From: Azolla caroliniana
Taxonomy: Eukaryota; Plantae; Polypodiophyta
Assembly (NCBI GenBank): GCA_043228905.1
Contig: JBHGNT010000006.1
Span: 16,802,001 to 16,866,000, forward strand
Direction: 5' to 3'
Length of the DNA stretch: 64,000 bases
In this document: in pieces, positions 3,316-55,653 of the stretch
Position numbering within the stretch: position 1 is the stretch's first letter
Layout: the number at the start of each line of letters is the position of its first letter
Made by a program: the position numbers and the translations under genes
Notes under the pieces: model-generated
The model's database searches: none
What the model saw: only the letters and a program-made list of their open reading frames with translations
What the model was told of the DNA's origin: nothing

Positions 3316-3322
3316 TACTCCC

Positions 3323-4912: not shown

Positions 4913-4951
4913 AAGGTCAGCCCAACGGCCTTTACGACCAACAAGATCGGG

Positions 4952-10073: not shown

Positions 10074-10265
10074 TACGGAGCCGGATGACGAAGAGCCGAC
10101 TACGGAGCTGGATGATGAAGACCCCGGCTACGGAGCCGGATGACGAATAGAAGACCCCGGCTACGGAGCCGGATGACGAAGACCCGGCTACGGAGCCGGA
10201 TGATGAAGACCCCGGCTACGGAGCCGGATGACGAAGACCCCGGCTACGGAGCCGGATGATGAATG
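10074..10265 (+). repeat. 27-28 bp tandem repeat in the copia B 5' LTR U3 (7 copies; 8 copies in the 3' LTR at ~14901-15120)
   Basis: Unit TACGGAGCCGGATGA(C/T)GAAGACCCCGGC counted directly in both LTRs. Confidence 0.93.
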
Positions 10266-10775: not shown

Positions 10776-13700
10776 ATGGAAGGCGGCGGTAGTGGGCCTC
10801 CGGGCATGATGGTGTTGAACTCACCGAACTACGCCGACTGGAAGATAAAGATGGAAGACCTTCTCATCGTCCGAGACCTGTACGAACCGATCGACAATGC
10901 CGAGATACCCAAGGGGGTAATAGAGTCGGAGTGGAAGCTCCTGAACCGGAAAGCCATAGCGACGATCCGACAATATGTAGATGTAAGTGTTCTGCAACAT
11001 GTGGCGAACGACACCAACGCATATGAGATGTGGAAGAAGCTGTCGGGCCTCTACGAGAGGAAGAATGCGTTGAACCGGACTTCCCTGATGAGGAAGATAG
11101 TGAACCTCAAGTACCGGGATGGCGAGAATATGGTGGAACACGTGAGCACGTTCATGGGATTCGTGAACCAGCTTGCGGCGATCAAGTTCCCGTTGGAGGA
11201 TGCAATGCAAGCCATCATTCTGATGTGTACATTGCCGGAAAGCTGGGAGAACTTGGTGGTGACCCTCAGCACCTCCTGCACCGAAGATAACTTGTCTCTA
11301 CAAACGGTAAAGACAAGCATTTTGAACGAAGAAGCGCGCTAGAGAGATAAAGAACCGGTTTCCGATCCGAAGATGCTACTTACCGAATCGGATCGGGGAA
11401 GACAATGGAACCGGAGTCCGCAAAGACGGGAGAAGTCGGGGACCCGGTCGCAGTCAAGAGGAAGACCCACATGCTTCCACTGTGGGAAGCCGGGGCACTT
11501 CCGGAAGAATTGTCGGCATTACCGAAAGGACAACGGAGCCGACGACACTGATTCGAAGAAGTCACCGGAGAGAAACGGTGCATACCGGGGAGCCACGGAC
11601 CGGAGAGGTCCGGATCGGCGAGGGCAGGACCGGAAAGGAACGACGGCACTCGCGGCAAGTGAAGAAGAGATAATGCTCATTACCGAAGAGAGGGAGCTGA
11701 ACCTTGCCGGTGTAGAGATGACCTGGGTGGTCGATTCCGGAGCGTCGTTCCACCTGACCCCGGAGAAGAAATACTTCTCATCCTACACAGCCGGTGAGCA
11801 CGGCTGTGTCCGGATGGGAAATGAAGGCACATGTCGGATTGCCGGCATAGGAGACGTGTGGCTGATGACATTAACCGGATGCAAGATGCTGCTGAAGGAT
11901 GTACGACACGTTCCGGAGGTTCGATTGAACCTGATTTCGGCCGGGAGGCTAGACGATGAAGGCTACACGGGTAGCATCCGGAACGGTGTCATGAAGTTCA
12001 GCAAAGGAAGGTCAACACACTGTACCTGATGAATTCCCGGCTATGTCCGGAGGAGCTGAACGTGGCAACCGATACTGCCGGTGAGCTGTGGCACAAGAGA
12101 CTGTGTCACATGAGTGAGAAGGGGATGAAGAGGCTTGTAGAAGACAACCTTATTCCAGTGAAGCATGTGCACCTGGAGAAGTGCACCGATTGCCTGGCCG
12201 GTAAACAGAACCGAACCTCCTTCCACTCAAGGCCACCGATGAGACGTAGTGTACCATTGGAGTTGGTACACACTGATGTGTGTCAGGTAGAAACGAAGTC
12301 ACATGGCGGAGCCCAGTACTTCGTAACATTCATAGATGACCATAGCCGGAAGCTGTGGACGGCACCGTTGAAGACAAAGGACCAAGTATTGTCCGTCTTC
12401 AAAGAACTCCACGCGAGAGTGGAAAGGGAATCCGGCAAGGAGCTGAAAGCGATACGAGCGGATAACGGAGGGGAATACCGGGGGCAGTTCGAGGAGTATT
12501 GTCGCTCGAAGGGAATCCGGCTCGAGTTTACTGTGCCGAAGACGCCGGAACTGAACGGGCTGGCCGAGAGGATGAACCGGACCATAATGGAGAGGGTCCG
12601 GAGTATGCTGGCGCATGCGAAATTACCCAAGGGGTTTTGGGCTGAGGCAATGTCGACGGCGACATACGTGATAAACAGATCACCCTCAGTACCTTTGGAC
12701 GGAGACACGCCGCAGAGAGTGTGGACCGGTAGGGAAGTATCCTACCGGCATCTAAAGGTGTTCGGGTGTCTCGCATATGTGCATGTGGCAAAGGACCGGA
12801 GAGGAAAGCTAGACCCAAAGACCCGGCCATGCATATTCCTCGGTTACGGCGACGACGAGTTCGGCTACCGAGTATGGGACCCGGTCGACAAAAAGATATT
12901 CCGCAGTCGTGATATCATCTTCATGGAGGACAAGACACTCGCCGACTGGGAGTCGGAGAAGAAGATGAAGAGCTCCAAGTCGTCCGGTGAGGATCAACTC
13001 TACGAGGAGCAGTCCCGACCGGCAGGGGACCGGTTAGCACTCGAGGATCCGGCCGAAGACGGTGAAGAAACAGAACCGGCCGAGGAAGATGAAACTGATA
13101 CCGGAACTGGCCCCGATCCCGAAATGGATTCGGATGAAGAGGAAACGGAGGAGCCGGTTACCGAAGCTCCGGAACGGAGATATCCTCTAAGAGAGAGAAG
13201 GGCCCCCCGGAGATTTCCGGAACCAGAGCACGTGCTGCTAATCGACGAGGGGGAGCCGGAGAGTTTTGAAGAAGCAAAGCTTGACACCCATAGCCGCAGG
13301 TGGTTAAGTGCCATGCAGGAGGAGATGGATTCCCTGCATGAGAACCACACATATGAACTTGTGGAGTTGCCGAAAGGAAAGCGGGCACTTCGAAACAAGT
13401 GGGTGTTCAAGCTGAAACCGGGAGATGCCGGAAACCCCCCGAGATACAAAGCCAGGATCGTGGTGAAGGGGTTTCAGCAGAAGAAGGGCGTCGACTTCGA
13501 CGAGATATTTGCCCCGGTAGTGAAGATGACCTCCATCCGGACGGTGCTGAGCATAGCGGCAAGCATGGACCTCGAGGTAGAACAGATGGACGTGAAGACG
13601 GCATTCCTTCACGGTGACCTCGAAGAAGAGATCTACATGCAGCAACCGGAAGGATTCGAGAAGAAAGGGAAGGAGCACCTGGTATGCCGGTTGAAGAAGA

Positions 13701-14824
13701 GCCTTTACGGACTGAAGCAGGCTCCTCGGCAATGGTACCGGAAGTTCGACTCCTTCATGACCGACGAAGGGTACCACAAAACGCAGTCCGATCACTGCGT
13801 GTTTGTGAAGAAGTTCGAAGGAGGAGACTTTCTAATACTCCTCCTGTACGTGGACGACATGTTGATCGTCGGACGGGACCAGGTCAAGATACAGATGCTG
13901 AAGAAAGCGCTTCACCGAACCTTCTCAATGAAGGACCTGGGTCCGGCGAGGCAAATACTAGGGATGCACATCATCCGGGACCGGAAGAAGAAGCAGTTGT
14001 GGCTGTCACAGGAGAAGTACGTGACAAAGGTGCTTCACCGGTTCAACATGTCGGAAGCAAGACCGGTCGGGTCAACCCTCCCGGCAAACTGCAAGTTGTC
14101 CAGCAAGCAAAGCCCCAAGACAAAGGCTGAGAAGGAGGACATGATGAAAGTACCATATGCCTCTGCCGTCGGAAGCTTGATGTACGCAATGGTGTGTACA
14201 AGACCGGACATAGGATATGCAGTCGGAGTGGTGAGCCGGTATATGAGTAATCCCGTTAAGGAGCACTAGAACGCGGTCAAATGGATACTCCGATACTTAA
14301 AGGGCACTTCGAACATGTGCCTCCGATTCGGCTCCGGTAAACCCGAACTCGATGGATTTACCGATTCGGATATGTCGGCTGATGCGGATACCAGCCGGTC
14401 TACATCTGGGTATGTAATGACATATGCAGGGGGAGCCGTTTCGTGGCAGTCGAGGTTGCAGAAGACGGTTGCGTTGTCAACCACGGAGGCGGAGTACATG
14501 GCGGCTGTTGAAGCCGGCAAGGAAATAATATGGATGAAGGACTTCATTAAAGAGCTCGGTATCCGGCAGGAGGAGTACCGACTCTACTGCGACAATCAGA
14601 GTGCCATCCACCTTGCGAAGAATGCGGCCTATCACTCCCGGATGAAGCACATCCAGCGTAGATACCACTGGATCCGGGAAAGGATAGAAGACAAGGAGTT
14701 CGTGCTGACAAAGATCCACACGGACGAGAACAGGTCGGATATGCTGACCAAGGTACTTACACCCGACAAGCTGGAAGCATGCCGGAAGAGGATCGGATTG
14801 GAGAGACATCCCATGCCGAAGTGA
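10776..14824 (+). pseudogene. gag-pol: Copia B gag-pol with stops (11340, 14267) and a frameshift near 12010-12030
   Basis: CFHCGKPGHFRKNC knuckle, WVVDSGASFH protease, LWHKRLCH and HTDVC integrase, LYVDDML RT, FTDSD and CDNQSA RNase H across four ORFs. Confidence 0.95.
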
Positions 14825-15646
14825 AGGGGGAGTTTGTTGGGATTTTCGGTCCCTCCGGATGGGATGTCCGGAGATAAATGACGGCAAGCCTGGTTGCGGT
14901 TACGGAGCCGGATGACGAAGACCCGGCTACGGAGCCGGATGATGAAGACCCCGGCTACGGAGCCGGATGACGAAGAGAAGACCCCGGCTACGGAGCCGGA
15001 TGACGAAGACCCGGCTACGGAGCCGGATGATGAAGACCCCGGCTACGGAGCCGGATGACGAAGACCCCGGCTACGGAGCCGGATGACGAAGACCCCGGCT
15101 ACGGAGCCGGATGATGAATGTACCCGGAGAGAGATCCGGATGCGGGGACATATTTGTGAATATGTTTGCCAAGGGCCCTTGAGGCTATATTTGTAAATAG
15201 CCCGAAAGTCATATGTGTATAAATATGACTTAGGGCAAACAGTTTAGTGACTGTTGCTCATTTTCTGTTTTCCACTTAGAGAGAGTGAAGAGAGCAGCCG
15301 AGAGAGAGAGAGAGAGAGAAAGACGAAGAGGTCGTTGCCTCTGTGTATTACCGCCGCCTGTGGCGAAGACAGTGAGCTCAAGGTTGTTGCCTTGTGGCTT
15401 CACCATTGTACATCTCTGTTCATAGTGATAGTTGGAGTTTGAGGACTTCTGTGGTTTTTCCTATTTAGGGTTTTCCACGTAAAACATCCTGTGTATTTTT
15501 CTCTCTATTGTCTTCGTGCATTTTTTTTTGTATTTCCCGTTTTTTCTGTGAATCGATCCTACTACTTGGTGGCGGCCGAGCACTGTTGTTCAACACAAAA
15601 AACATCAAAACAACAAAAAAATTGTTAGTAAAAGCTCTGATACCAC

Positions 15647-16120
15647 TGTTAAGAGTCTATTACTAATCAATAGACCAAATCAAGTAAAAAGGAAGAAAAT
15701 AGATTGGATAGAAGAACCCGTTCCACCCGACCACGCCCGAGTTATGATCTAGACATAGCCAACCTACCACCGACGTCCCATACCGCCGGATATTAGGATG
15801 ACTAATACCTTGGAAGAGATAAACACGATCGTCGAGACGAAAGCCTAGCCCGCACCACCGGTGTCTACGACAGCAGCCTTCCGACGTGATGATCCCTATG
15901 AGGGTAGCTAAGCCTCATATTTATACCTTTTCCTAGGCCCCTTGAATAGATGTGCCTTTCTAAAAGGCTCTCTATTCATTGGTTGTCTAAATCATGATAG
16001 TGCATGCACATATCATTCATTCTATCCAATCATTAGTCCCCTTTTTAATAATAGTGAACATACCCTGCACTAATGTAAATATTAGTGACCTACCCTCACC
16101 AACGTTATGTGTACATAACA
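15647..16120 (-). repeat. G1 5' LTR (474 bp)
   Basis: Direct repeat of 2842-3315; PBS complement GCTCTGATACCA at 15634-15645; TSD follows. Confidence 0.95.
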
Positions 16121-22045: not shown

Positions 22046-22369
22046 GGCCTCCGTGGTTGATAGGGCCGTACACTCTTGAAGTTTCGAACTCCATGATATA
22101 GCACCACCACCATAGGTGAAGATATAGCCACATGGTGACTTTTGATTGTCCGTATTTCCAGCATAGTCGGAGTCAATGTAGCCTTCGACTTCGGCTGAGA
22201 TTGTCAAACCGAAAGTCAATCGTGTACCTTCGGTCCCTCTCAAGTACTTGAAGATGTGCTTGACGGTCTCCCAATGCTTCCATCCTGGGTTTGACATGTA
22301 CCGACACGGCATGTCATGATAACAGTCACATCATGCATCGAAAGGATCATGACACTCACATTATGACTC

Positions 22370-22430
22370 GAAAGGATTTGAACCCACGACCTTGTTGTAC
22401 ACATGTCAAATCGTTAACCATTGTATTAAT
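22370..22430 (-). ncRNA. tRNA-derived Pol III A/B-box module in the T1 LTR (antisense)
   Basis: Minus strand reads TAATACAATGGTTAA...AAGGTCGTGGGTTCAAATCC; A-like and B box starts are 44 nt apart. Confidence 0.6.
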
Positions 22431-22449
22431 ATTCTTATATGTATAGTCT

Positions 22450-22635
22450 CTAGAATATGAAATCTAATATCATAGGAATATTCTATATTACTCTACATTC
22501 TAGAATGACCTAGAATATTCTAGAGTGTTCTATACCACTAGAACCTTCTAGAATACTCTAGAGATCTTCTAGATTACTCTACATTCTCTAGGATAACCTA
22601 GAATATTCTAGAGAGTTCTCTATTACTTATAAATA
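22450..22635 (+). promoter_or_regulatory. Heat-shock element (nGAAn) array and TATA box in the T1 LTR
   Basis: aGAAccTTCtaGAAt (22540-22554), aGAAtaTTCtaGAgtgTTCt (22512-22531) and aGAAtaTTCtaGAgagTTCt (22600-22619), upstream of TATAAATA at 22628. Confidence 0.75.
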
Positions 22636-22872
22636 GGGATCTACCACCCATCCCAAACCTAAATTGGTTCAACGCCATTTTGTAGCCTACTCTTTGTAAT
22701 CCATTTTACGCTTCAATATAATAATTCTCTTTCAATTATCCCTCTATCTCTTTTTCTCTCTCTTTCTCTCTCTCAGTCTTGACAGTTTGAACCAATTTTT
22801 TTCCTTTCATCTCTTCGTCTTCCACAAACCCTAACAAGTTCTCTTCTTCCTTCTCCTCTCCCCTCATAAGCT

Positions 22873-23997
22873 ATGGAGTCCGTGAGCAAACAAGAATACA
22901 TGCGTGTTCTTTCTGAGCTCGACATGCTCACGAATAAATTTGTGGCATTAGAGCATGAGAATCAAAGGCTACTTGGAGATCTACAGCACGTGAGCGCCGA
23001 AAAAGCTCAACAATATGAAGAGTTATCACAGCGGGTTCATCAACTTGAGGCGACTATATTGTCATTACGAGAGCAAGCGTCGGGGGCTCAGAACTCCCCT
23101 AGAGAGCCAAAGATCAGCCTCCTTGCCAAGTTTGATGGTACGAGGTCTTTATTTCGAGGCTTTTTGAATCAAGTTCGTTTAGTTATTCAGCTACATCCCA
23201 ATCGGTATCCAACTGATGCTGCTCGTGTGGGATTAGTGGGAACTTTGCTATGCGGTACGGCGTTAGCATGGTTCGCACCACTTCTCGAGAAGAAATCACC
23301 ATTGCTGGAGGATTTCGAGGCCTTTGTTAAAGAGTTTCAAGCTAGTTTCGGAGACACCGACAGCACTAGGACAGCGATAAACAAGATTCGAAGGCTCCGA
23401 CAAGGAGATCGTCCCGCGTCGTCTTATGCAGCCGATTTCCGTCTCTTGGCATGCGATATCCCTTGGGATGAGGCAGCTTTAATGGATCAATTCCGTCAAG
23501 GTTTGAGAAATGATGTCAAAGATCTTCTTCTTACTTTCCCTGAAGATCCGAAGTCACTTACAGAAGCCATTAGTCGAGCTGTGCGATGTGATAATCGCCT
23601 ATTTGAGCGACGTTTTGAGCGCCAACAAATGTTACGCCGCCAACCTGAACAGACTTACGCTTCCGTAGTCGCAACGCCTCCACAAGTTTCTAGACCCATT
23701 ACAAGGGATGGCCCAACTCCGATGGAAATAGAGTCAACACAACGTTGTGGGCCGTTATCAGATGCTGAGAAGCAACGACGTCGAGCGCATCGCCTCTGCC
23801 TGTATTGTGGTGGTCCAGGACATATAGCTGTAAATTGTCCACATAAACCTAGGCGTCAAGTATACCAAGTAAGTGCCCATGAAAACCCTACATCGAGTTC
23901 TATTGTTACTTCTAATAACATAAATAAGCCTCATAGTCCATGTCATGAGAATAGATTCGATGTCTTGAGTCAATTAGAGGATGTGTTAAACGAGTAA
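22873..23997 (+). CDS. gag: T1 Gag (coiled coil, capsid, zinc knuckle)
   Basis: KFDGTRSLFRGFL, LRQG, PTPMEI and CLYCGGPGHIAVNC motifs; intact 374-aa ORF. Confidence 0.93.
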   Translation: MESVSKQEYMRVLSELDMLTNKFVALEHENQRLLGDLQHVSAEKAQQYEELSQRVHQLEATILSLREQASGAQNSPREPKISLLAKFDGTRSLFRGFLNQVRLVIQLHPNRYPTDAARVGLVGTLLCGTALAWFAPLLEKKSPLLEDFEAFVKEFQASFGDTDSTRTAINKIRRLRQGDRPASSYAADFRLLACDIPWDEAALMDQFRQGLRNDVKDLLLTFPEDPKSLTEAISRAVRCDNRLFERRFERQQMLRRQPEQTYASVVATPPQVSRPITRDGPTPMEIESTQRCGPLSDAEKQRRRAHRLCLYCGGPGHIAVNCPHKPRRQVYQVSAHENPTSSSIVTSNNINKPHSPCHENRFDVLSQLEDVLNE

Positions 23998-26900
23998 GTC
24001 CGGCCAAAATAGGAGCCATTTGGCTGGACCATCCTAGCTATGTAGAGTTAGTTCCTAGTCGTGGTTCCATTTCATCAAATCAAGTGAGTCGAGTTTTTTC
24101 AGCACAAGTCGAGCTTACCACATCTACATGTCATCGAGTCCTAGCCTCTGCCCTTCTAGATTCTGGAGCCAACTCTTGTTTCATGGATCGTGAATTTGCC
24201 TTGTCACAAAACATCCTCTTGAATAAGCTTCCCAACCCAGTAGCCGTAGGAGTCATCGATGGACGTCCCATAGCATCAGGAGATATTGTCGAGGAGTCCG
24301 AGCCAATTAGGATAGTTCTTGGCAATTTGGCAAGCCTAATCTCTTTCAATATTATTCGTAGTCCGGACCACCCAATAGTTCTAGGTCTCCCCTGGTTTGA
24401 ACTCCATAACCCGAAGATTGATTGGATGAAAAGAACAATTGAGGAGACTCGGGAAAAAAGCACAAATCCCGCATCCCTCTCTCCTACATGTGCTAATAGA
24501 TCCCCGGAGTTATCGCCCATCTCTTTACGACAGTTGCGGGAGGAATGGGGGAACGAGGCCATGTTCGTCTTCGCAATAGTAGCAACTCCATCATCCACTT
24601 CACGTGACGCGGATATTAAACTACCAGAGAAATACAAGGAGTTTTCAGATTTCTTTGATAAGGTGAAGGCCAATACATTACCGGAGCATCGGCCATACGA
24701 CTGCCCTATTGACTTACAACCAGGGAAAGAACCTCCATGGGGCCCAATTTATAATCTCTCCCCTGTAGAGCTAGAGACTTTGCGGGAATATATTGATGAG
24801 AATCTGGCAAACGGATTCATTCGGCATTCTAGATCCCCTGCTGGTGCACCCATCTTCTTCGTTAAGAAGAAGAATGGGACTCTTCGGTTGGTCGTGGATT
24901 ATCGAGGGCTAAACAAAGTGACTATCCGAAATAGATATGCTCTACCATTAATCCCGAATCTTTTGGAACGTCTCAGTGGTGCAAAATATTTCACGAAGTT
25001 GGACCTTCGCGGAGCATATAATCTAGTTCGGATTCGCCCGGGGGATGAATGGAAGACAGCTTTCCGCACTCGCTATGGACATTTTGAGTATACAGTGATG
25101 CCATTTGGTCTCACAAATGCACCTGCTGTTTTCCAACATATGGCGAACGATATTTTTCGAGATTTTCTTGATATCTTCACTATAGTTTACCTAGATGATA
25201 TTTTAATCTACTCAAAGACCCAAGAGGAGCATGATGCACATGTTCGTCAAGTACTGTGCCGACTCCGAGAATATGGTCTCTACGCAAAATTAGAAAAGTG
25301 TAGTTTCGGCCAGAATCAAGTGGAATTTTTGGGGTATGTTGTATCGTCAAATGGTATTGCTATGGACCCCATGAAGGTACAGACAATTTTAGAGTGGCAA
25401 ACGCCCCTTTCAGTGCGTGATGTGCAATGTTTTCTCGGGTTTGCAAATTTTTATCGAAAATTTATTAAAGATTATTCCAAGGTTGTGCTTCCGCTTACTC
25501 AGCTCACACATAAAGATCAACCATTTATATGGAGTTCAGATGCATCCGAGGCATTCGAAAGCTTAAAATGAGCATTTACAACGGCACCTATCTTAGCACA
25601 TGTCGACCCAACAAAACGCTTCATCCTCGAAGCCGATGCATCCGATTTTGCACTAGGGAGTGTCCTCTCGCAGACTGGAGATGATGGACAACTACACCCT
25701 GTCGCCTTTCATTCACGAAAGTTTGAAGCTGCAGAGATCAACTACGAGATCCATGACAAAGAGCTTCTTGCAATCGTGGATTCGTTTCAACAATGGCGAC
25801 ATTTCCTAGAAGGTTCTTTTCAACAGATCATTGTCTACAATGATCATAAGAACCTGACTTATTTCCAAAATGCTCGAGTCTTGAGTCGGCGACAAGCCCG
25901 GTGGGCGCAATTTTTGACTCACTTCGACTTTATCATCATATATCGCCCTGGGATGCAGCAAGGCAAAGCAGATGCTCTTTCTCGGCGCTCTTATATGGAA
26001 CTTCGTCCAGGGGAACCTGCTTTTGAGCATCAAAAACAAATCCTTTTGGGTCCTAATCGATTACGATTAATGGTAGTTAACACCATAACAGCTCTTGAAA
26101 ATTCCACTCTTCTTGATTCCATTCGAGATCATATGGCCACTGATGATTTCGTCAAGGATGTTTTGGATCATATCGTCCCGGATCGTGCTTCTTGCTCACA
26201 GTCGAAAAATCCTCGTAATGACTATTGTCAGTTCTATTGGCATGATGGTTTTCTATTTCGACAAAATTTATTGTATGTTCCTGATGGTCCCCCACGACTA
26301 CAAGTTTTGCAACATTGCCATGACTCACCAATGGCTGGTCATTTTGGAGTTCACAAGACTCTAGAATTAATTTCTCGACACTATTGGTGGCCTCGCCTTC
26401 GTCATTTTGTTGAGGAGTATGTTCGGAGTTGTGATATATGTTGTCGATCAAAGAATCCTCGTCACCGACCCTATGGCTTACTACAACCACTTCCCATTCC
26501 GGAAACACCTTGGAAGTCTATATCCTTGGACTTCATTACTGATCTCCCAGTTTCAAAAGGTTTTGATGCAATTATCACAGTGGTTGATCGATTTACCAAA
26601 ATGGCACATTTCTTGCCATGTACAAAGTCGATTACTAGTCAAGAGACGGCTGATCTCGTTATGCGGGAGGTATTTAAGCATCATGGTCTGCCAGATGATA
26701 TTATTAGTGATCGTGGTCCACAATTCATCTCAAAGTTTTGGAAGCACCTATTCAAACTTCTCCACATTTCAGTTAAGCTTTCTTCGGGCTATCATCCTGA
26801 AACAAATGGCCAAACAGAGTGTACCAACCAGACATTGGAACAATATCTTCGTTGTTTCATCAACTATCAACAAGATGATTGGGTTGCATTTTTGCACTTG

Positions 26901-27635
26901 GCGGAATTCGCTTACAACAACTCAGTCCATTCTTCTACAGGATATTCCCCATTTTTCGCAAATACGGGCTGTCATCCTCGATGGACGATGAATGCGCATC
27001 CAGAAGTTCCTACCAACCCTGCTGCCGAGGATCGTCTTAGTCGCCTCCAAGAAATTCAAGCTAACATTCTCCACAATTTGCACGATGCTCAATTTACACA
27101 CAAGAGGCTTGCCGATCGTCATCGTCTAGACTCCTCAAAAAAGTTCCGCATTGGGGATCATGTATGGCTTCTCCAACACAACATCAAGACCACTCGACCT
27201 TGCAGTAAATTGGATTACCAACGTTTTGGCCCTTACATGATCACTGGTAAGATAAGTGATGTTGCATTTCGTCTTGACCTCCCTCCGCACATGCATCTTC
27301 ATCCGGTGTTTCATGTATCCCTTTTGGAACCTTATACTACAAGTTCAATTCCGGGCCGTCTTACGACACCCCCACCACCTGTCGAGTTCTTGGACGGGCC
27401 TGAATTTGAAGTTGCTGCCGTTCTCGATTCTAAAATCGTGCGCAACAAGTTGTATTACTTGGTCGATTGGCTAGGCTATACCCCCAATGATCGAACTTGG
27501 GAACCTGCCACAAATCTTTCCAATGCTGCAGAACTCATCAATGCATTTCATCGCCAATATCCTTGTAAACCAGGTCCTAATACAAACCCTACGACCCGTG
27601 AGACGTGTCGTCGAAGAAGGGGGATAGTGTCATGA
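23991..27635 (+). pseudogene. pol: T1 Pol (PR-RT-RH-INT-chromodomain) in the -1 frame, one internal TGA at 25569
   Basis: LLDSGA, YLDD, EADASDFALG, HHCC/DDE and chromodomain EFEVAAVLDS..YLVDWLGY...TWEP. ORFs 24084-25571 and 25776-27635 share a frame. Confidence 0.93.
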
Positions 27636-30012
27636 TAACAGTCACATCATGCATCGAAAGGATCATGACACTCACATTATGACTCGAAAGGATTTGAACC
27701 CACGACCTTGTTGTACACATGTCAAATCGTTAACCATTGTATTAATATTCTTATATGTATAGTCTCTAGAATATGAAATCTAATATCATAGGAATATTCT
27801 ATATTACTCTACATTCTAGAATGACCTAGAATATTCTAGAGTGTTCTATACCACTAGAACCTTCTAGAATACTCTAGAGATCTTCTAGATTACTCTACAT
27901 TCTCTAGGATAACCTAGAATATTCTAGAGAGTTCTCTATTACTTATAAATAGGGATCTACCACCCATCCCAAACCTAAATTGGTTCAACGCCATTTTGTA
28001 GCCTACTCTTTGTAATCCATTTTACGCTTCAATATAATAATTCTCTTTCAATTATCCCTCTATCTCTTTTTCTCTCTCTTTCTCTCTCTCAGTCTTGACA
28101 CAGCATAGGCTAGGTCGGGCCGGGTCGCCGCCATTGCGTACATGATACGTCCTACGGCCGATGCGTAGGGCATGTTTCCATTAAGCTCTCTCTACTTGTC
28201 CGTTGAAGGAGAGTTTATGTCTGATAGTCGGATCGACATCGGAAGCGGTGTTGGTTTTGGCTTCGCATTTTCCATGTTGAAGTGCCTTAGCACCTTCTGG
28301 ATATAGTCGGACTGGGAGAGTCAGAGAGTCTTGGTTGTCTGATTTTGCTCGATCCTCATGCCCAGTATGTGATGGGCTTGTTCGAGTTCCTTCATCGCGA
28401 ACTTGTCGTGAAGGGTCCGCTTCAGCTTTCCAATCTCTACTTGATTTCTTCCTACAATTAGCATGTTGTCGACATATAGGATCAGGTAAATCCTAGACTC
28501 ATTGGCCAGTTGTCGAACATACATGCATGGGTCGAAGTCGGATCGACGGTATCCAAGCTTCTTGATGTAGGAGTCGAACTTCTGGTACCACATCCTCGGC
28601 GCGTGTTTCAAGCCATAGAGGCTTTTCTTTAGTCGACATACGAGGTGACTTTCCTCCCCTGTCATCGTGAACCCTGCCGATTGAGACATGTAAATGTCTT
28701 CTTCCAGATCTCCGTGTAGGAATGCCATCTTTACATCCAACTACACTAGCTCTAGGTCTTCTGTCGCCACAACTCTTAGTAGGAGTCTGAGGGTGGTCAT
28801 CTTGACAACTGGTGAGAATATCTCGTTGTAGTTGAACCCATGTTCTTGTTTGAACCCTTTCGCAACAAGCCGAGCTTTGTATTTGGGTTCTCTGAGTCGG
28901 ATACATATTTGTATCAGAAAACCCATTTGCAGGTTAGCGGCTTTCTTCCAGCTGGTAATTCAACCAACTCTCATGTCTGATTCTTGTGAATCGAGCCCAT
29001 TTTGGATCTCATGGCTTGAAGCCATATGTCGGTGTTCAGTGTGGCCATAGGTTCGTCATATGTGCCTAGTTCACCTGCATCAGTGTAGTTGACATAGTCG
29101 AGGCCCGATTGATAGAACATTGTCGGCCTTCGAGCTCGTCCAGATCTCTTGGGTGCCAAGATAAGTGGTTCCAATTCTTCGATCAGCTCTGTTGATTGAC
29201 CATTATTTGTTAAACCGTTTGTGCCATGAGTCTTGTTAGGTGACCTGCCCCCATGTTGGGATTTCAACGGTGTCATGGCGTTCTCCCCTATGGGCTTTGT
29301 CGACTCGGACTTGTTCCCAAATCGCATCTTGTTGACTTTTCTTTGTTCGACTCTTGTTGAATTGGCTCTATCTTTGATGGCTTTGTCTTCGAGTTCGACT
29401 ATTGGACTTGTTGCTGATTCGGAGTTGGCAGGTATATTATTCGCTTGTTCGAGTTCGACTGTTTATCGAGTCTCTAAGTCATCCTGGTGGGTCTGTCTTT
29501 CTACGACAACTCTATCATCTTCGAAGGATACCCTTTTACCAACTATTTTTTGTTGGTTCCGTTGAGAGAAGATAGAGTCTTTATTGAAGACTACATCACT
29601 GCTCCGGATCAGTTTCCGGTTCTCTAGATCCCATAGCCGGTAGCCGAAGTCCCCATCGGTTCCATAACCGAGAAATATGCATTTTGTTGCATGGGGTGCC
29701 AACTTGGTCCTTTTCTCCCTGGGGATGAACGCGTATGCTTCGCATCCCGATACACGGAGCCAATCGTAGGTCAGTTGTTTGCTTGACCATAGTGCATCTG
29801 GCACTTCGAGCCTGATTGCTTTCAACGGTGAAAGATTTGCGAGGTATATTGATGTCTACAATGCCTCGGCCCAAAACTCTAGATTCAGTCCGGCTTGTTG
29901 GAGGATTGCAGTCACCCTCTCCTGGATCGTTCAGTTGTTCCGTTCTGCCACTCCATTCTGCATGGGTGTGTAAGGAACGGTGTTGCGATATTCTGCAAGT
30001 ACGTGTAGGATC

Positions 30013-37100: not shown

Positions 37101-39912
37101 GCGCCCGAAATACAGCTCATGAGCTGACACCTTGTCACCAATGCGGTTTTGTATGTAGACGGCCGTCCGGACCGCCTCCGCCCAGTAGAACCGGGGCATG
37201 CTCTTTTCCTCCAGCATTGCCCTTGCCGCTTCGACGAGTGACCAGTTCTCCCTTTCAGCCACACCGTTTTGCTCCGGTGTGTATCTGCAGCTAAACTCTC
37301 ACCGAATTCCCTTCTGTTGCAGATAACTAGTGAATTGGCTGGAAAAATATTCCTTTCCGCCATCCGACTGAAGGCATTTGATCTTCCTCTCCGATTCCCG
37401 TTCCACCATCTTCTGGAGGCTCCGAAAACAGTCGAAGACTTCGCTCTTCCGCTCAATGAGGTAGATCCAAGTATGTCGAGTATAGTCGTCGATGAAGGAG
37501 ACGAAGTATCGGCTCCAGTTCCGTTCGGTGGGGAATGGAAGCCGGTGTTGCTTCCCAAGTTGGCAGGCTTCACAAATTTCGGCTCTCCGGCCGCTAAACT
37601 TCGGCAAACCGAAAACAACTTGTTTCGTTTGCAGGTCTTGAAGCCTCTGGTAGTTGACGTGGCCTATCCGCTTGTGCCACAGGTCAATGTCCGACTCGAC
37701 CTTCTGTCGATTCGCGAACAAAGCGGGGCCAAAGTCATTGGTGTTGAGGATAAACATCCTCCCGTCTCTGTGCCCTTGCGCAATGACTTCGCCCTCATCC
37801 TCAATGAAGCACCCGAGGTGCGTAAACCGCACCTGCATCCCCTGGTCGACAATCTGACCAACGGACACCAGGTTCTTCGTGATTGTTGGAACGTGTAATA
37901 CGTTCATCAGCTTCCCTTTCTGTCCGACGTGGCTTAGAGGGACTTCTCCGACGTGCACGATTGGGTGAGGAGTGTCATCTCCGGTTTCGACTACTCCTGG
38001 TTGATCCGGTTTCTCCAGAAAGGAGTACCACTCTTTGTGGCTCGTCATGTGGTTCGACGCTGTCGTAGTGTAGGTTGCACACTATGTGGAAATTATATTT
38101 TTGTCCCTTTGGATAGAAAATGGAGTGCTCGGTGAGAAAAGGAGGAAAACGGCATACCGGCAAGGAGGGAAAACGGCATGCCGGCAAGGAAGAAAACGGC
38201 ATACCGGCAAGGAAGAGCCGGATAAAGAGACATAAATGTAAAAAGAAGGAAATACTCACTACTGCGCAAGGCGTGATTCGAACTCTGCACCTCCGCGTTG
38301 ACAAACCCCAACCTTACCATTACATTAACTTATCTTAAGTGTTCTAAATATAGATTTAATACGTATAAGACCTTTATTTATGCATACCTTTATTAAAAGG
38401 TAAATCGTGTATTTTTTTTAATATATGAAAAAGAAAAACACGAGACACTAAAAATAACTCATGCACATCTAGCGTGCATGAGCCCTATACTTAGGAAATA
38501 AAAAAAGCATCACATGGACATTTAGTGGACATGAACACTTTTTGTAAAAAAAAAAAAAGCATGAAGCCATGCTTAGCTCTTCCTCCCTTATATAAGGAGG
38601 AGAGAAATATGTAAAGGGTTGTTGATTTTTTTGGATTAAGAATTAATCAATACAAAAATTATTCGTGGGATTCACGATTTATACGTCTACTTCTCTCTTA
38701 ACACCCTAAGTACCAATTAATATAGTATACTCGTGTGATTCACGAGTTTCTTATCTTTCTCTTTGCTATTTACTCATAATTAATCTCTATCTCGCGAACT
38801 TCTTTCTCCTAGTCCAAGACCTCTGTGGTTCCCACCCGACTCACGCAACGATCCGGAGCCGAAAGGCACGACAACGCGCCGGAATCAACATACCACGCTT
38901 CCTCCATTTTGGAAGTGGTCTTCTTCATTGAGTTTGCCTTGTGATTCATCACCAAGGCTGGCCCCTTACCGGCCTTTCCGGTTCCGAATCCTCCTGATCC
39001 GTTTGTGTAGTGCGAGTTTTGCCGGCCACCCTTACCGGTCTTGCCGGATCCGGATTTGTCCGAATCGGCACGCTTTCTCCAGCACTCGCTTTCCCTGTGG
39101 CCTTTTTTGCCACACTACCAGCATTCCGTAGCGGATTTGTCTTGCCGGCCTCCGGCACCGCCTTGACTCCCCCTGCTTGTGGAAGTCCCGGAACTGCTAT
39201 CCGCACACTCATAGTGCCTTCGTTCCTGCTCTTGCCGGCCGCCTCCATTGCGTGCCGACCCACCTCTTCCACCACGCCCACGGAGCCGATCCGTTCCCGT
39301 GTACAGCATTCGGTTGTCCGGGGATGCACTGGTAGATGCACCGGCGTGGTTCTCCTCTACAAGGAGCATCGACTGTAAGTCGAAGAATGAGGGGGTATTC
39401 TCCCTTGTACACACCGCAGTCTGGAACGCTCCGAACTTGGACGCCAGGCCTCCGAGACATACCTGCACCATCTCATCTTCCTCTACGGTAACATTGATAG
39501 AGGCGAGCGAGTCGCAGATCTCCTTTATCCGGCCCGTGTAGTTTGCCACAGACATGTTCTTCTGTCGAACATTGCTCAACTCCTGTCTGAGTTGCAGCTT
39601 CCGGGCAGTGGTGCTTGCAGCGAAAACCTTTTTGAGGTTCCCCCAAGCATCCTTCGGTGTCTTGGCGTCATAGACGTGGCTGAGCAGCTGATCGCCGACA
39701 CTGGACGCGAAGCAGTACATCACCCTGCTTGCCGCTTGTTCCCATACCGGGAAGTCCTTGTGTGTCGAGCCGGGCGCCGCATCATTCGCTCCTTCGACAT
39801 AACTCCAGTACCCGTGTCCAAGCAGGTACTGGTGCATCTTGTAAGACCAGGATGCGTAGTTGCTCTTGTCGAGCTTGTCCACCGGGAGCGACGTAGCCAT
39901 GCCTCTATCCAT
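34122..39912 (-). pseudogene. gag-pol: Copia F gag-pol, disrupted by a stop in the zinc knuckle, a solo-LTR insertion and integrase lesions
   Basis: Gag 39115-39912 (ECW*CGKKGHRESEC); protease WYVDSGA|SNHMT split at 38060/38874; INT-RT-RH in ORFs 37299-38048 and 34392-37262. Confidence 0.93.
38061..38873. mobile_element. Solo LTR (813 bp) with 4-bp TSD in the copia F protease gene
   Basis: TGTCGT...ACGACA termini; TSD ACGC at 38057-38060 and 38874-38877; three ~24-bp AAACGGCATACCGGCAAGGA repeats at 38147-38215. Confidence 0.88.
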
Positions 39913-48578: not shown

Positions 48579-48909
48579 CAATCATGCCCGGCTTGGTCCT
48601 TGCCCACTCTGGTAACCTCGTCCGCTCCGGTAACTAACTCCTCGCCGCCACCCGCCGTCTCTCCAGTCTTACGTTGATCCACAACCGTCGAAGTCTCTAG
48701 AATAGGTGTGGAGGGTCCCGCCCGTTTCCGGTCTTTCATGGAACCGTAGTCGTAATGCCTGCTTGGCCTCCTTCTTCCACTCATTGGCTCCCACCATGTG
48801 TTGCAACTCTTCTTCCCCGATCTCCAATCATGTTGGCTTGGTCCTTGCCCAGTTCGGTCCCGACCGATCATGTTCGGGTTTGCTCGGCTTCCTTCCATAT
48901 GTCATGATA

Positions 48910-48972
48910 TGGCAAGACTCGAACCGATGACCTTAGGTTATACGGGTCGAGCTCTTGACCATTAGACCATCT
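48910..48972 (-). ncRNA. tRNA-derived Pol III A/B-box module in the T2 LTR (antisense)
   Basis: Minus strand reads TGGTCTAATGGTCAAGAG...AAGGTCATCGGTTCGAGTCT; A box start 48969, B box start 48925. Confidence 0.65.
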
Positions 48973-49044
48973 ATTGTAATACGTAGGATATTATTTTCAT
49001 TTATATTTTATTATAGGAAATTAGTGTATATTCCAGATTTCTCT

Positions 49045-49090
49045 GGAACATTCTAGAAGCTTCAGGATTACTCCTGAAAACACTATAAAA
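49045..49090 (+). promoter_or_regulatory. Perfect 4-unit heat-shock element and TATA box in the T2 LTR
   Basis: gGAAcaTTCtaGAAgcTTCa (49045-49064) and TATAAAA at 49084; repeated in the 3' LTR. Confidence 0.8.
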
Positions 49091-49410
49091 GAGGGCACTA
49101 GGAATTATGTTGAACCAAATTGGTTCAACGCCAGTCTTAAGCCTTTTAGCCACCATTGTATATTCTCTTCATATAATACATATCTTTCTTATCATCACTC
49201 TCTCTCTCTCTCTCGATCTCTCTCTTTCTCTCCGTCTCGCTCACTCCTTCCTTCTCTCGAAGAAGTTCTACACCTCTCATAGTACTAATCCTTCGTTTAG
49301 CACTAATTCCTTCTCTGTCTCAGTACTGTTCCTGACAGTTTGAACCAATTTGCCTACCTTCTATCTCTCTCATTTCCTACTAATCTCTTATTCCTCTTTT
49401 CTTTCATCCC

Positions 49411-52400
49411 ATGGCCACTGTTAGCGCTGAAGAATATTAATCTGTTTTCTCGAAATTTCAATGCTTGAAAGAGAATTTCCATGCTTTGGAACAAGAAAAC
49501 CAACGGTTGCTGGGGGATCTTCAGCAAATCTCCTTAGAAAAGCAGCAAACGCAACAACAGCATGGGGAACTTGCGTTACGCGTGCAACAACTCAAAGCAA
49601 CCATCGTAGCGATGCAACAACAAGGGCCCGGAACACAAGGGATTCATAAAGAACCCAAGATTGGCCTTCCCACGAAGTTCGATGGAACGCGATCGCAGTT
49701 TAGAGGGTTCCTTAACCAGGTACGATTAGTTATCCAAATGCATCCTTCCCGATATCCCACCGATGCATCACGAGTGGGTTTAGTAGGCACTTTGTTAAGT
49801 GGCTCAGCGTTGTCATGGTTCGCTCCACTATTAGAAAAGGAATCTCCGTTACTCAACAATTTTGAAGAGTTTCTAGGTGAGTTTAAAGCATGTTTCGGAG
49901 ATACTGACAGCATCAGGACCGCAATCAACAAAATTCGACGATTATTCCAAGGTGACTGTCCAGCCTCCGCATACGTTGCAGATTTTCGCCTTCTCGCCGC
50001 CGATATCCCTTGGGATGATCAAGCGTTGATGGAGCAATTCCGTTATGGTTTACGCAACGACGTCAAGGATTTACTCTTGACCTTCCCCGAAGAGCCAAAG
50101 TCCTTAACAGACGCAATCAGTCGCGCGATGAGATGTGACAACCGCCTCTTTGAGCGACGTTCGGAAAGACAGCTACAGATGCCGAGGCCAAGATCAGAGC
50201 CCACCTATGCCTCAGTGGTAGCAAGACCTTTTCCGAGGGAGTCATATAATGCGCCTCCAGCGAATACTCCGACTCCGATGGAGATTGACACTACACGTCG
50301 TCAAGGGCCATTATCCGAAGAAGAAAAGCAGCGACGCCGTACAAATCGACTATGTCTTTACTGCGGTGGACCAGGACATATCGCAATAAATTTCCCCCAT
50401 AGGCCAAGAAGACAGGTAAACCAAATAGTCGCTAGTTCTAATTGTACTAAACCCGAGCCTATTTCAGTAGGGATATCTGATAGTCCTAATAGTAAACAAA
50501 TTTGATGTCCTTAGTCAGTTAGAAGAAGAGTTAAACGACTAAGTCCAGCCAAAATAGGAGCCGTTTGGTTGGACAGCCCTAGATCTGTGTAGCCCATTAG
50601 TGGTTCCATTCCCTCTAAGCAAGTTAGTGATGTGTTCGTAGCCCAAGTAATAGTTAGTACTAAAAGTACCCCTCCAGTACATGTCCTAGCACTCCTAAAT
50701 TCCGGAGCTAACTCTTGCTTTATGGATAAGAAATTTGTTCAAGCTCATAAGATATACCTAAGAAAACTCCAGTGTCCAGCCTCTGTAGTAGTCATTGATG
50801 GACGTCCCATTGCTTCCGGAAATATCATAGAAGAGTCAAAGCCCATTAATATTGTCCTAGATAACTTAGCATGTGTAGCATCATTTAATATTATTAGTAT
50901 CCCAGAACATCCTATAGTTTTAGGATTACCGTGGTTCGAGTTACATAACCCAGACATAGATTGGAGAACAAGAGAAATCCGATGTCGACAAACCCAAGGG
51001 ACAACTCAGAAGATGGCAACCATTTCGCTACGTCAGTTGCGTAAAGAAGGGTGCGAGGAGGAAATGTTCCTCTTTGCAATATCAGTAAACCCCTCCAGCA
51101 CCACTAAAGAAGAATCCACCGTTCAACTTCCCGAGAAGTATTGTCATTACGCCGATGTGTTCGATAAAGTACAAGCCAACACACTTCCTCATCATCGACC
51201 GTACGATTGCCCCATCGATTTACAACCGGGAAAAGAGCCGCCATGAGGACCGATCTACAATTTGTCACCAACCGAGCTGGAAGTCCTTCGGGCCTATATC
51301 GAGGAGAATTTGGAAAATGGTTTCATTCGACATTGGAAATCTCCAGCCGGCACGCCCATTTTCTTCGTCAAGAAAAAAGATGGATCGCTTCGTCTCGTTG
51401 TAGATTACCGCGGCTTGAATAAGGTTACAATCAGGAATAGGTATGCTCTTCCCCTTATCTCAAGTCTTTTAGAACGGATCAATGGTGCCAAGTTCTTCAC
51501 GAAGATCGACTTACGGGGAGCATATAACCTCGTACGGATCCGACCAGGAGACGAATGGAAGACCGCGTTTCGCACCAGATATGGGCACTTCGAGTATACG
51601 GTCATGCCGTTCGGCCTCACTAATGCACCGGCAGTCTTCCAGCACATGGCTAATGATATATTCCGAGATCTATTGGATGATTGTTTGAACATCTATTAGT
51701 ACTAATACGACTATTCCGAGATCTATTCCGAGATCTATTCTCATGTACTATTAGTACTAATACGACTTCGAGAACATGGTCTGTATGCAAAGCTGGAAAA
51801 ATGTAGTTTCGGGTGCAACCAAGTGGAATTTCTCGGCTACATCATTTCATCAAAAGGCATCTCCATGGACCCAGCTAAGGTCAAAACGGTGGTAGAATGG
51901 CAAACTCCGCGTTCGGTGCGGGATGTGCAATGCTTCCTAGGCTTTGCCAATTTTTACTAGAAGTTCATACAAGATTACTCAAAGATCGTTCTACCTCTCA
52001 CACAACTTACCAGGAAGGGACAACCGTTCATCTGGTCTGAAGAAACGGACATGGCTTTCGAGAGTCTTAAAAAGTCATTTACATCGGCTCCAATTCTAGC
52101 TCATGTCGATCCGGAAAAAGCATTCATTATCGAAGCTGACGCATCGGATTTTGCATTGGGGAGCATTCTGTCACAACAGGGGAATGATGAGAAGCTACAT
52201 CCTGTGGCTTTTCACTCACGCAAGTTTGACACCGCCGAAATTAACTACGAAATTCATGATAAGGAGCTATTGGCAATAGTGGATTCTTTTATGCAATGGA
52301 GGCATTTTCTGGAGGGATCCTCTCATCCAGTCACCGTATTTAGTGATCACAAGAATCTTGCCTACTTTCAGGATGCTTGCGTGTTGAATCGACATCAAGC

Positions 52401-54120
52401 TCGATGGGCCCACTTCCTCACGCGTTTCGACTTCAAAATTACATATCGTCCAGGGAAGCACCAAGGGAAGGCAGATGCATTATCACGACGTTCGTATCTA
52501 GCACCCCGTCCTGGCGAGCCAGCTTTCGATAACCAAAAACAAGTCATCTTGGGACCGGCACAACTACAAGCAACACATATCTTTGACATGCCCATGGATT
52601 CCCGCGTTATCGATACCATACGTGAAGACTTGAAGACAGATGCGTTTGCCCAAGCTATACTAGCACAAATTGATCCCTCTCGAGCGTCGTCTTCACAGTC
52701 GCAACCACCAGGTACGGACTATCGGCAATTCAAATACCATGATGGATTACTCTTCTTTAAAGAACTTTTGTATGTTCCTAATGGTTCTTGCCGCCTTCGA
52801 GTTGTTCAAAACTGCCATGACACATATACAATTGGGCATTTTGGTAGTACTAAAACATTACATTTAGTACAACGATCATTCTGGTGGCCCTGTATGCGAC
52901 AATTTGTCGAGGATTTTGTTCGGACTTGTGATACATGTTGCAGAGCGAAAATGCCAAGGCATCATCCATATGGTTTATTAGAACCATTACCAATTCCAAG
53001 CAAGCCGTGGCATTCCATTGCTCTAGACTTCATCACAGATCTTCCAGTCTCTAAGGGGTTCAATGCAATTCTAACGGTGGTTGATCGATACACGAAGATG
53101 GCTTATTTCTTGCCATGTACTAAGGAGATCTCCAGTGAAGACACTGCCGAAATTGTCATGCGTGAAGTATGTCGACATCATGGACTTCCCGATAGTATCA
53201 TCAGCGACCGTGGACCCCAGTTCGTGTCAAAATTCTGGAAGCACCTTTTTAACATGCTCAAGGTCTCTTGTAACCTCTCCTCCGGCTACCACCCACAAAC
53301 CGACGGCCAAGCTGAACGAACAAATCAAACGCTGGAGCAGTGTCTGCGGTGCTTTCTCAGTTATCATCAGGACGACTGGGCAGATATTCTCCACTTCGCC
53401 GAATTTGCCTATAGCAACTCTATCCACGCATCCACTAAAGTTACGCCATTTTATGCTTATACGGGATGTCACCCTCGGTGGAGTGTACTTGAAACCCCAA
53501 AGGTGTCCACAAATCCGTGCGCGGAGGATCGTTTGGAGCGGTTATGCAAGATACAAGCGGATTTATCTACTCATCTCCAGCAAGCTCAACAAACACACAA
53601 GGTCTACGCGGATCGTCATCGACTTCCATCCAGTTTTAATATTGGAGATCGGGTGTGGCTGCTACGATGACACATCAAGACTACTCGCCCATGTGAGAAT
53701 TTGGATTATCGGCGATTAGGTCCTTTCCGTATTATTGGACAGATTAATTATGTCGCTTTTCGTCTCGATCTACCTCCTCAACTTCGGATACATCCAGTGT
53801 TTCATAGTTCTCTCCTTGAACCCTACCATGAGAGCACCATCCCAGGACGTCTTATCCAACCTCCACCCCCGATCAAGCTTGAAGATGGGCCGGAGTACGA
53901 GGTTGCCGCCATCCTTGATTCCAAGATTGTTCGCAACAAGCTCTACTATCTAGTCGATTGGCTAGGCTATAGTCCCAGCGAACGTACTTGGGAACCGATC
54001 GATAATGTGACCAATGCTCGTGCTCTTCTTGAAGACTTCCATCGTCAATATCCACACAAATCGGGTCCTCAATCCAAGACGACTCGTGACACTCGTCGTT
54101 TTAAAGGGGGGATAGTGTAA
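49411..54120 (+). pseudogene. gag-pol: T2 gag-pol with multiple stops, protease DSG>NSG and loss of RT YLDD
   Basis: ORFs 49465-50505, 50632-51246, 51262-51699, 52051-53670 and 53701-54120; chromodomain EYEVAAILDS..YLVDWLGY. Confidence 0.92.
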
Positions 54121-55653
54121 TGTTATGGCAAAACTCGAACCCATGACCTTAGGTTATATGGGTCAAGTTCTTGACCATTAGACCATCTATTGTAATACGT
54201 AGGATATTATTTTCATTTATATTTTATTAGAGGAAATTAGTGTATATTCCAGATTTCTCTGGAACATTCTAGAAGCTTCAGGATTACTCCTGAAAACACT
54301 ATAAAAGAGGGCACTAGGCATTATGTTAAACCAAATTGGTTCAACGCCAGTCTTAAGCCTTTTAGCCACCATTGTATATTCTCTTCATATAGTACATATC
54401 TTTCTTATCATCACTCTCTCTCTCTCTCTCTCTCCGTCTCGCTCACTCCTTCCTTCTCTCGAAGAAGTTCTACACCTCTCATAGTACTAATCCTTCGTTT
54501 AGTACTAATTCCTTCTCTGTCTCAGTACTGTTCCTGACACCATAATCGTAATAGCCGATAAGGGTTTGGCCGAACACTTCCGGTCTTACCAACTCTTCTT
54601 CGGTTCAGGCCTGGTGGACCGGCCCCCACTTCATTCTTTTCCCAGTTCGCCTTCCTATCGGGTCGATTCCTAACTCTCTCCTTGTTGCCGCTCTCGGCCT
54701 CCCCTTTAGTCCTTTTGTATATACCTGTTCCAGGCCTCGCATCCTCCTCTTCGTTTTGGTCACCCGCCCTGCCACTGCCATCGTTTGTCAGTCTAGGTCT
54801 CATGCCAGCTCTCGGGCCGGATGTCAGAGTCTCTAGAGCCAGTGCGGGTAAGATCTTGGCACCGCCGCTCGTTATGTCCGTACCCACCTCCATCCGGACG
54901 TCATTGTTCGTGGCTGTTGTACGTTGTCGGGATATTACGCAAGTGCGTGTGAAAATGAGGCGGGACCGCGGGGGTCTCGAACCAAAGAGCAAGCAAGGGA
55001 GGAGAAAGAGAGAGAACCGGCTACGCAGGACCGGGGATACGCAGGGACACGGCCCTTCAGCACGGAGAATGCGAACAGACACCGACACAGACAGATGCGA
55101 ATGACTAAATATGTGTATTAACAAAAATTGGCTAACACGACTACAACCCTCGATGGGGCACAGGTTGGTTACAACCGAACAGGCCGGCGAACAGATGCCG
55201 ATGCCTGTTCGCTTCGACGCACAAACGGGGTAGCAGGCCGGAGGTGCTGCCGGAAGCACTCGGCGTTCCTCGAAACAGCGCGAGCCTCCTCGGAACCCTG
55301 CACAGAAGCTATGGAGCTCGAGAAGGAAGGAAACACAGAGAGAGAGAGAGAGAAGCGTCCAGAAACAGTCCGGCAGCACTTCGTCCTCTCCGCGCGAGAT
55401 CCCTTCTCCTATTCTTCCTCTTCCTTTTATATCCCGTTAAGAGGCCGTTTGGCATTAACTGCATATCAACCGAATCTACCCACCTAGGATCCTCGTATGT
55501 ACTCTTGGCGCGCGTGTGTATAGAGCCGTTTCCCACGCCTTGTTCCTCCGATTCCTCTTGTGGGCGGTTTTCTTCACGACATCCGCCCCCACCTAACCGC
55601 GCATCCACCGGTATGCGCCAAATTAAGTTGGCACGGAGGAAACCGGCCCGCCT

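Follow-up and report, generated by a model that had tools for sequence, protein, structure and literature searches.

Outward-facing tRNA-derived A and B boxes in the LTRs of autonomous self-priming chromoviruses, a putative TFIIIC site beside the Pol II promoter

Introduction

Helenus, Ajax and Cassandra are non-coding TRIMs whose promoters derive from small-RNA genes (PMC10886601; this and the other papers cited here are represented by parts of their text). In Cassandra and Ajax, which are non-autonomous, a 5S-derived Pol III promoter was captured from a small-RNA gene into the LTR and transcribes the element that carries it (PMC10886601). The LTRs of Helenus TRIMs/TRIMp3 (Kojima 2024, PMC10886601), elements of 311-1263 bp, hold tRNA-derived sequence that is conserved around boxes A and B and provides no working tRNA; in the four LTRs examined the boxes lie in sense orientation and are proposed to transcribe the element. 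The autonomous partners of TRIMs are expected to use Pol II promoters (PMC10886601). Other Repbase LTRs also have tRNA-like parts, but analysis was confined to TRIMs (PMC10886601), so that a feature of this type may sit unremarked in databases.

DNA with A and B boxes, or with a B box only, is also bound by TFIIIC outside retrotransposons: tRNA genes and ETC/B-box sites lie next to heterochromatin and, in yeasts, act as TFIIIC-dependent barriers irrespective of orientation (PMC12409998, PMC2040200). Such barriers are fixed host loci; in the literature searched, precedents came from yeasts and animals, with none found for plants and no TFIIIC barrier role found for bryophyte-type genomes. The bipartite primer site of Ty3 offers another parallel, since its U3 holds the complement of the T and D arms of the one tRNA with which this tRNA-primed element pairs (PMC5371799). 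Chromoviruses of the Tcn1 clade have an aromatic-cage chromodomain, are self-priming with no tRNA primer site and measure ~5.7 kb (PMC2864245, PMC6317226); in plants the clade is described from mosses and club-mosses only (PMC6317226).

Here we analyse a 64-kb stretch of DNA (henceforth 'the window'), a nest of LTR retrotransposons in which two chromoviruses, T1 and T2, carry outward-facing A and B boxes in their LTRs. As in Cassandra and Ajax, the LTRs would have captured a Pol III promoter from a small-RNA gene and, as in Helenus, the captured sequence is tRNA-derived; T1 and T2 differ from all three in being autonomous elements of 5.6-5.8 kb, with gag and pol and a separate TATA promoter, and in having boxes that point out of the element. 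In contrast to the host barriers, the putative TFIIIC site of the LTR module would travel with a retrotransposon. The initial annotation knew of no description of such a module in chromovirus LTRs. Our literature search, which covered titles and the openings of abstracts and left most subscription journals outside its scope, found no Pol III boxes in autonomous or chromovirus LTRs either, and the parts consulted of two Tcn1-clade papers (PMC2864245, PMC6317226) hold no mention of them; tRNA-derived LTR sequence in itself, however, is already known from Helenus TRIMs.

Results

Two self-priming chromoviruses in the window

The two elements were delimited as follows.

48900..54539, plus strand: T2, a self-priming chromovirus with gag, PR, RT, RH and INT, pol in several broken frames, 5-bp target duplication CCATA
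48900..49337, plus strand: T2 5' LTR, 438 bp, 94% identical to the 3' LTR
49045..49064, plus strand: T2 heat-shock-element-like array (nGAAnnTTCn repeats), between the module and the TATA box
49084..49090, plus strand: T2 TATA box, predicted Pol II
49116..49128, plus strand: T2 self-primer, 13 nt complementary to the primer-binding site
49338..49352, plus strand: T2 primer-binding site of the self-priming type, without a TGG start
54103..54115, plus strand: T2 polypurine tract
54116..54539, plus strand: T2 3' LTR
22312..28100, plus strand: T1, a self-priming chromovirus with aromatic-cage residues in its chromodomain, pol split by one stop
22312-22784 and 27628-28100, plus strand: T1 LTRs, identical, 473 bp each
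22661..22672, plus strand: T1 self-primer, 12 nt complementary to the primer-binding site at 22785-22798

The Gag and integrase proteins of T1 and T2 are 66% identical. The site directly inside the 5' LTR of both elements lacks TGG and is not complementary to a tRNA 3' end; it pairs with the element's own R region, where the 12-13 nt complement lies ~30 nt past the TATA box, as it does in relatives. The chromodomain of T1 was recognised by Pfam Chromo (E 9.7e-14) with the cage residues F, W and Y visible, and the corresponding region of T2 aligns over 353 of 357 aa, but outside the integrase frame. Self-primers and chromodomain bear out the initial annotation of both elements as chromoviruses and, because T1 and T2 also lack a tRNA primer site, they fit the Tcn1 clade. 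This placement rests on a TTRPCxKLD integrase motif common to SM-Tcn1 (PMC2864245) and the T1/T2 clade and on a similar layout of the LTR ends judged by eye, the integrase tree described below being without a named Tcn1 reference. Unlike T1 and T2, the SM-Tcn1 LTR has no outward A/B module by eye.

Several further observations concern these elements. By eye, the SM-Tcn1 LTR has a stretch complementary to sequence just past the 5' LTR, laid out as in T1 and T2, which contrasts with its published description as having no self-priming site (PMC2864245). Directly before the self-primer, T2 (49110-49129) and three relatives (L032, L035 and L036) have a partial copy of the primer-binding sequence; the copy and the self-primer together make a short palindrome at the predicted start site, which may regulate priming. 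The target duplication of T1 (22307-22311 and 28101-28105) differs at one of five bases despite the identical LTRs. The minus strand of the window also holds a tRNA-primed chromovirus (2842-16120) in which the 5' LTR region is duplicated and which hosts a nested copia element.

Heat-shock elements follow the motif nGAAnnTTCn. Three-unit matches between module and TATA box were found in 14 of the 32 LTRs examined, and these arrays suggest that the families may be heat-inducible. T1 has such an array at 22540-22554, and there are further arrays in many of the relatives L027-L075.

The LTRs of T1 and T2 carry an outward A/B-box module

The A-box consensus is TRGYNNANNGG and that of the B box GGTTCRANNCY. 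Both are found on the minus strand of all four T1 and T2 LTRs, 44 nt apart from start to start and with AGGTC between them, as the initial annotation had read them for the 5' LTRs.

48915..48925, minus strand: T2 5' LTR B box, tRNA positions 52-62, 0 mismatches to the consensus
48929..48933, minus strand: T2 5' LTR AGGTC block, tRNA positions 44-48
48959..48969, minus strand: T2 5' LTR A box, tRNA positions 8-19, 0 mismatches to the consensus
54131..54185, minus strand: T2 3' LTR module (B box 54131-54141, with C61 changed to T; A box 54175-54185)
22374..22428, minus strand: T1 5' LTR module (B box 22374-22384, AGGTC 22388-22392, A box 22418-22428 with one mismatch, G10 to A)
27690..27744, minus strand: T1 3' LTR module

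Sites combining an A box (up to one mismatch) with a B box numbered four in the window, three of them in T1 and T2 LTRs and one elsewhere at a spacing of 53, against 0.23 per window in 100 shuffled windows (0.01 for a perfect A box with a B box). With a scoring matrix trained on 13 families, from which T1- and T2-like sequences were left out, the four T1 and T2 copies reached 40.2-41.5 bits and the best of 200 shuffled windows 21.8 bits; the flanks of T1 and T2 gave no score. T1 and T2 also pass the SINE-Finder pattern RVTGG-N25-50-GTTCRA (PMC7315354), which six other LTRs of the window (that of the third, tRNA-primed chromovirus and five more) fail. Two details of the initial annotation needed correction. 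The module was said to begin the LTR; it does lie near the outer edge, but at a variable distance, the B box being 15 nt from the LTR end in T2 and 62 nt in T1. Nor are the two LTRs otherwise dissimilar, being 72% alike over 123 nt around the self-primer.

A fifth outward-facing module was found in a solo LTR.

38061..38873, plus strand: solo LTR, 813 bp, TGTCGT...ACGACA, 4-bp duplication ACGC, inserted in a copia coding region
38274..38327, minus strand: fifth module, outward-facing (B box 38274-38284 with two mismatches, A box 38317-38327, spacing 43, 31.6 bits)

This module lies in U3, more than 200 nt from the LTR end. The solo LTR probably belongs to the non-chromovirus gypsy lineage of the window, whose LTRs it resembles at both ends and in a 22-nt motif close to the 3' end; this assignment was made from one copy. 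The insertion point is in the copia protease motif.

The module recurs in relatives chosen by integrase alone

Relatives of T1 and T2 were picked by alignment of the integrase C-terminus alone, blind to the module. In the metagenome collection the best 80 of 337 integrase relatives gave 79 loci. The start of the 3' LTR could be placed, with 110 nt or more of sequence, in 65 of the 80 loci examined, to which T1 and T2 were added; nine loci without a usable 3' LTR lacked a polypurine-tract call, the remainder were too short, and one of 84 nt, L080, was added by hand. The integrase tree (60 rows) placed T1 and T2 in clade I (support 100/100). Clade II had support of 100/99, and a third clade joined it as its sister group (support for the join 99/97). 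Within the first 140 nt of the LTR, the full module (a B box with an A box at 43-44 nt) was present on the minus strand in 11 of 16 clade I and 3 of 11 clade II representatives, and a B box (at most one mismatch), with or without the A box, in 13 of 16 and 7 of 11; some of these representatives share a U3 cluster and therefore are not fully independent. In the same 140 nt the plus strand held the full module in none of the 27 representatives, and 200 shuffles gave a mean of 0.0 full modules and a maximum of one.

The distribution is uneven. No full module was present in the four representatives of the third clade, nor in L049, the integrase of which is close to that of L051, nor in L090. The LTRs of L049 and L051 are similar over the first ~20 bases, after which L049 continues without the module, which points to replacement of U3. 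L090 and L059, also close integrase relatives, differ in U3 as well. Together with its absence from the SM-Tcn1 LTR, these cases indicate that the module is dispensable to an element. Module state changes five times on the integrase tree, a pattern that could reflect a single ancient gain followed by losses in several lineages or, alternatively, multiple gains and exchanges of U3. The module of L080 is, by reading, built differently, with a 12-nt A box and six of seven acceptor-stem pairs intact, and is likely to be a separate or younger capture.

Beyond these loci, the viral collection gave no exact-pattern match, two alignment searches in it found no relative, and none of its 23 distant loci scored above 21.5 bits with the module matrix; the genome collection yielded seven distant, contaminant-like contigs. 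The stretch or part of it occurs in 20 runs from 10 studies, including plant or leaf metagenomes; the plant range of the Tcn1 clade would point to a moss as host.

Isolated tRNA-like pieces were seen elsewhere too. In AT-rich flanks outside LTRs, module-like matches near 11552 of L057 (33.6 bits) and near 5119 of L067 (24.4 bits) may be free-standing relics of tRNAs or SINEs. One family group (L038 near 2963; L041 near 1020 and 6344) has a second tRNA-like piece, also antisense, in its protease-RT linker, with 0-2 mismatches in the A box, 0-1 in the B box and a spacing of 42, in frame in three copies; it was absent from the other protease-RT linkers scanned.

The boxes are conserved and the stems are not

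Column counts were made on 16 representatives picked for having the module, which belong to families spanning ~50-77% integrase identity. G18, G19, G45, G46, T47, G53, T55, C56 and A58 were invariant in all 16; A14, T16, T20a, A21, A44, G52, T54 and T60 were kept in 14-15 of them (A14 in 15), as were T8 and C61, each in 14. The conserved columns are tRNA-invariant positions (8, 14, 18, 19, 21, 44-48, 53-58 and 60-61), in agreement with the tRNA-derived origin that had been proposed. Between families (13 representatives), identity was 0.77 at positions 14-22, 0.87 at 44-48 and 0.82 at 52-61, compared with 0.35-0.39 in the flanks, the spacer and positions 49-51 with the T stem, so that the boxes are indeed more conserved than the neighbouring U3 and the proposal that selection retains them gains support. 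Stem positions overall had identities of 0.35-0.48, and pairing stayed close to column shuffles in all four stems (acceptor 0.43 against 0.38, D 0.51 against 0.49, anticodon 0.46 against 0.44, T 0.58 against 0.59). Since the loops are kept and the stems lost, whereas fresh captures would still pair and neutral relics would lose their boxes, the pattern marks selection acting on DNA boxes, and the module is kept as such and not as a tRNA.

The distance between the boxes is also held: in the 16 selected representatives its SD is 0.39, as against 13 for the distance from B box to LTR end. Two further relatives, L094 and L085, keep both boxes at spacings of 50 and 55, and TFIIIC tolerates a lengthened A-B spacer (PMC12409998). 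At the CpG of positions 56/57, the consensus-neutral change G57A occurred in 10 of 30 copies and the consensus-breaking C56T in two; as the copies are related, the p value of 0.04 is only indicative.

Variation within the T2 family was read from 414-1296 contigs per run in four runs, on a 115-nt stretch whose end is too near the B box for that box to be judged. No variant reached 4% in any of the four runs in AGGTC or at positions 15-19; A-box positions 9, 11 and 12 and the spacer vary and, by depth, changes across runs amounted to 0-54% at G10 and 0-10% at A14. The A box is thus weak: only 3 of the 16 representatives keep G10 of the textbook box, and in one run up to 54% of the depth for the T2 family departs from it. 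Plant A boxes keep mainly a 5' T and a 3' GG (PMC11700998), and the same holds for the LTR modules.

The module is not a tRNA gene or an integrase attachment site

ARAGORN found no tRNA genes in the window at its 90% threshold and only noise-level matches below it. The Rfam tRNA model, a covariance check that had been suggested for the tRNA reading, went against it, matching neither T2 nor any of 20 related loci and scoring T1 at 13.3 bits (E 3.5) over the 3' half only. We therefore rejected a tRNA gene, as the module was accepted by no tRNA model and pairing in its four stems does not exceed that of column shuffles. No tail or target duplication that would mark a SINE insertion was seen around the module. 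An integrase attachment site as the cause of B-box conservation was rejected as well, given that the distance from B box to LTR end ranges from 15 to 64 nt across 16 families. The self-primer of T1 and T2 matches the B-box consensus, but pairing of the U3 anti-B-box with the self-primer was rejected as a general explanation, because the module persists in other families whose self-primers are unrelated, the self-primer sequence changing from family to family.

Discussion

Judged by its sequence, the module is a set of tRNA-derived Pol III-type boxes that is under selection in the LTRs of many autonomous elements. Its outward orientation cannot transcribe the element. From the LTR end inward, the order is B box, AGGTY, A box, AT-rich tract, often a heat-shock-element-like array, TATA box and self-primer; AT content is highest (0.82-0.84) 20-40 nt upstream of position 8, and plant tRNA genes are AT-rich in the corresponding upstream region (PMC13578239).

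The reading that we rank first, and to which we give about an even chance, is that the A/B pair is a putative TFIIIC site that forms a chromatin barrier next to the Pol II promoter of the element itself. In this model TFIIIC would recognise the B box and recruit TFIIIB to the AT-rich stretch that separates the A box from the heat-shock elements and the TATA box. The TFIIIC/TFIIIB complex would stand with its back to the Pol II promoter, exclude nucleosomes and delay the spread of silencing from the surrounding heterochromatin, where chromodomain integrases tend to place new copies. If Pol III does transcribe outward, the RNA would be incidental or belong to the barrier, and would not be what is selected. 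The ranking is based on the known mechanism of B-box binding and TFIIIB placement by TFIIIC (PMC12409998), on the orientation-independent barriers of yeasts and on the moss chromoviruses, whose copies lie in heterochromatic islands where only young ones are transcribed (PMC7466625); the functional steps themselves are inferred. The weakness of the A box at G10, the repeated losses and the unexplained invariance of G45-G46-T47 count against the barrier. This invariance and the near-fixed spacing of 43-44 exceed what we found described for TFIIIC, and our searches turned up nothing specific on G45 in TFIIIC binding.

It is also conceivable, if unlikely, that the boxes drive Pol III transcription and that the RNA or the act of transcription is selected, for example as antisense from the 3' LTR that crosses the polypurine tract into the integrase gene and limits the element. 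Such a role would account for the retention of both boxes and the upstream AT-rich tract, and not just of the B box, and in T2 and T1 no minus-strand T4 follows the B box for 898 and 254 nt, respectively. Across 18 LTRs, however, the distance from the B box to the first downstream T4 ranges between 10 and 1026 nt, the T4 being inside the LTR in several, and no T-run terminator is conserved shortly downstream. With such scatter neither the length nor the target of the RNA is conserved, which weakens the earlier suggestion of antisense RNA into pol; no structure is conserved either, and RNA from the 5' LTR would enter an arbitrary flank.

We regard as quite improbable a role at the RNA level, in which U3 RNA, as the complement of tRNA D and T loops, would anneal a packaged host tRNA and so join RNA ends or aid minus-strand transfer. 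Its geometry is that of Ty3, whose U3 anneals to the T and D arms of tRNAiMet (PMC5371799), and a tRNA-gene-like sequence at U3-R of HIV-1 has been reported to promote transfer; a role of this kind would explain why the module is antisense and why it adjoins the polypurine tract, and a G-to-A change at position 9, 10, 52 or 57 would still allow a G-U pair. The same substitution would keep pairing at G18, G19, G45, G46 and G53, yet these are G in 80 of 80 cells. Unlike Ty3, moreover, T1 and T2 prime themselves and offer no site to which the 3' end of a tRNA could anneal, the stem positions that a tRNA hybrid would need are free to vary, and the solo-LTR copy lies far from the LTR end.

Ty3 integrase lands at tRNA genes bound by TFIIIB and TFIIIC. 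An integrase landing at TFIIIB/TFIIIC-bound sites, or a transcription factor on AGGTC, might likewise be what reads the conserved blocks, and G45-G46-T47 is as invariant as the core of the B box, beyond what a textbook promoter needs; but the conserved positions of both boxes are those of a tRNA promoter and are spaced as in tRNAs, the window has no tRNA gene and the T1 and T2 flanks do not score with the matrix, and we hold recognition by another host or element protein to be decidedly improbable. Neutral tRNA or SINE relics, repeatedly captured in outward orientation and now decaying, are very improbable and largely refuted by the conservation and stem data: repeated capture seems real (L080, the second antisense piece in one protease-RT linker) and losses are common, but only the stems and the spacer have decayed, the loops being unchanged across deep divergences, and fresh captures would pair their stems whereas old neutral ones would lose boxes and CpG.

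Returning to the TFIIIC barrier, its general form is a more tentative proposal, which we would put at perhaps one chance in three: that autonomous LTR retrotransposons of non-seed plants repeatedly captured tRNA promoter boxes, always outward in U3, as a portable TFIIIC insulator protecting a heat-shock-type Pol II promoter in heterochromatin. The module extends the capture of Pol III promoters from small non-coding TRIMs to autonomous elements, in which the promoter cannot transcribe the element. Chromoviruses insert into heterochromatin yet need to be transcribed, and a putative outward site for Pol III factors would be a specific and testable answer to this conflict. An outward LTR module predicts many non-tRNA TFIIIC sites in bryophyte-type genomes and, if the proposal is true, very many LTR copies would make up a major set of TFIIIC sites shaping these genomes.
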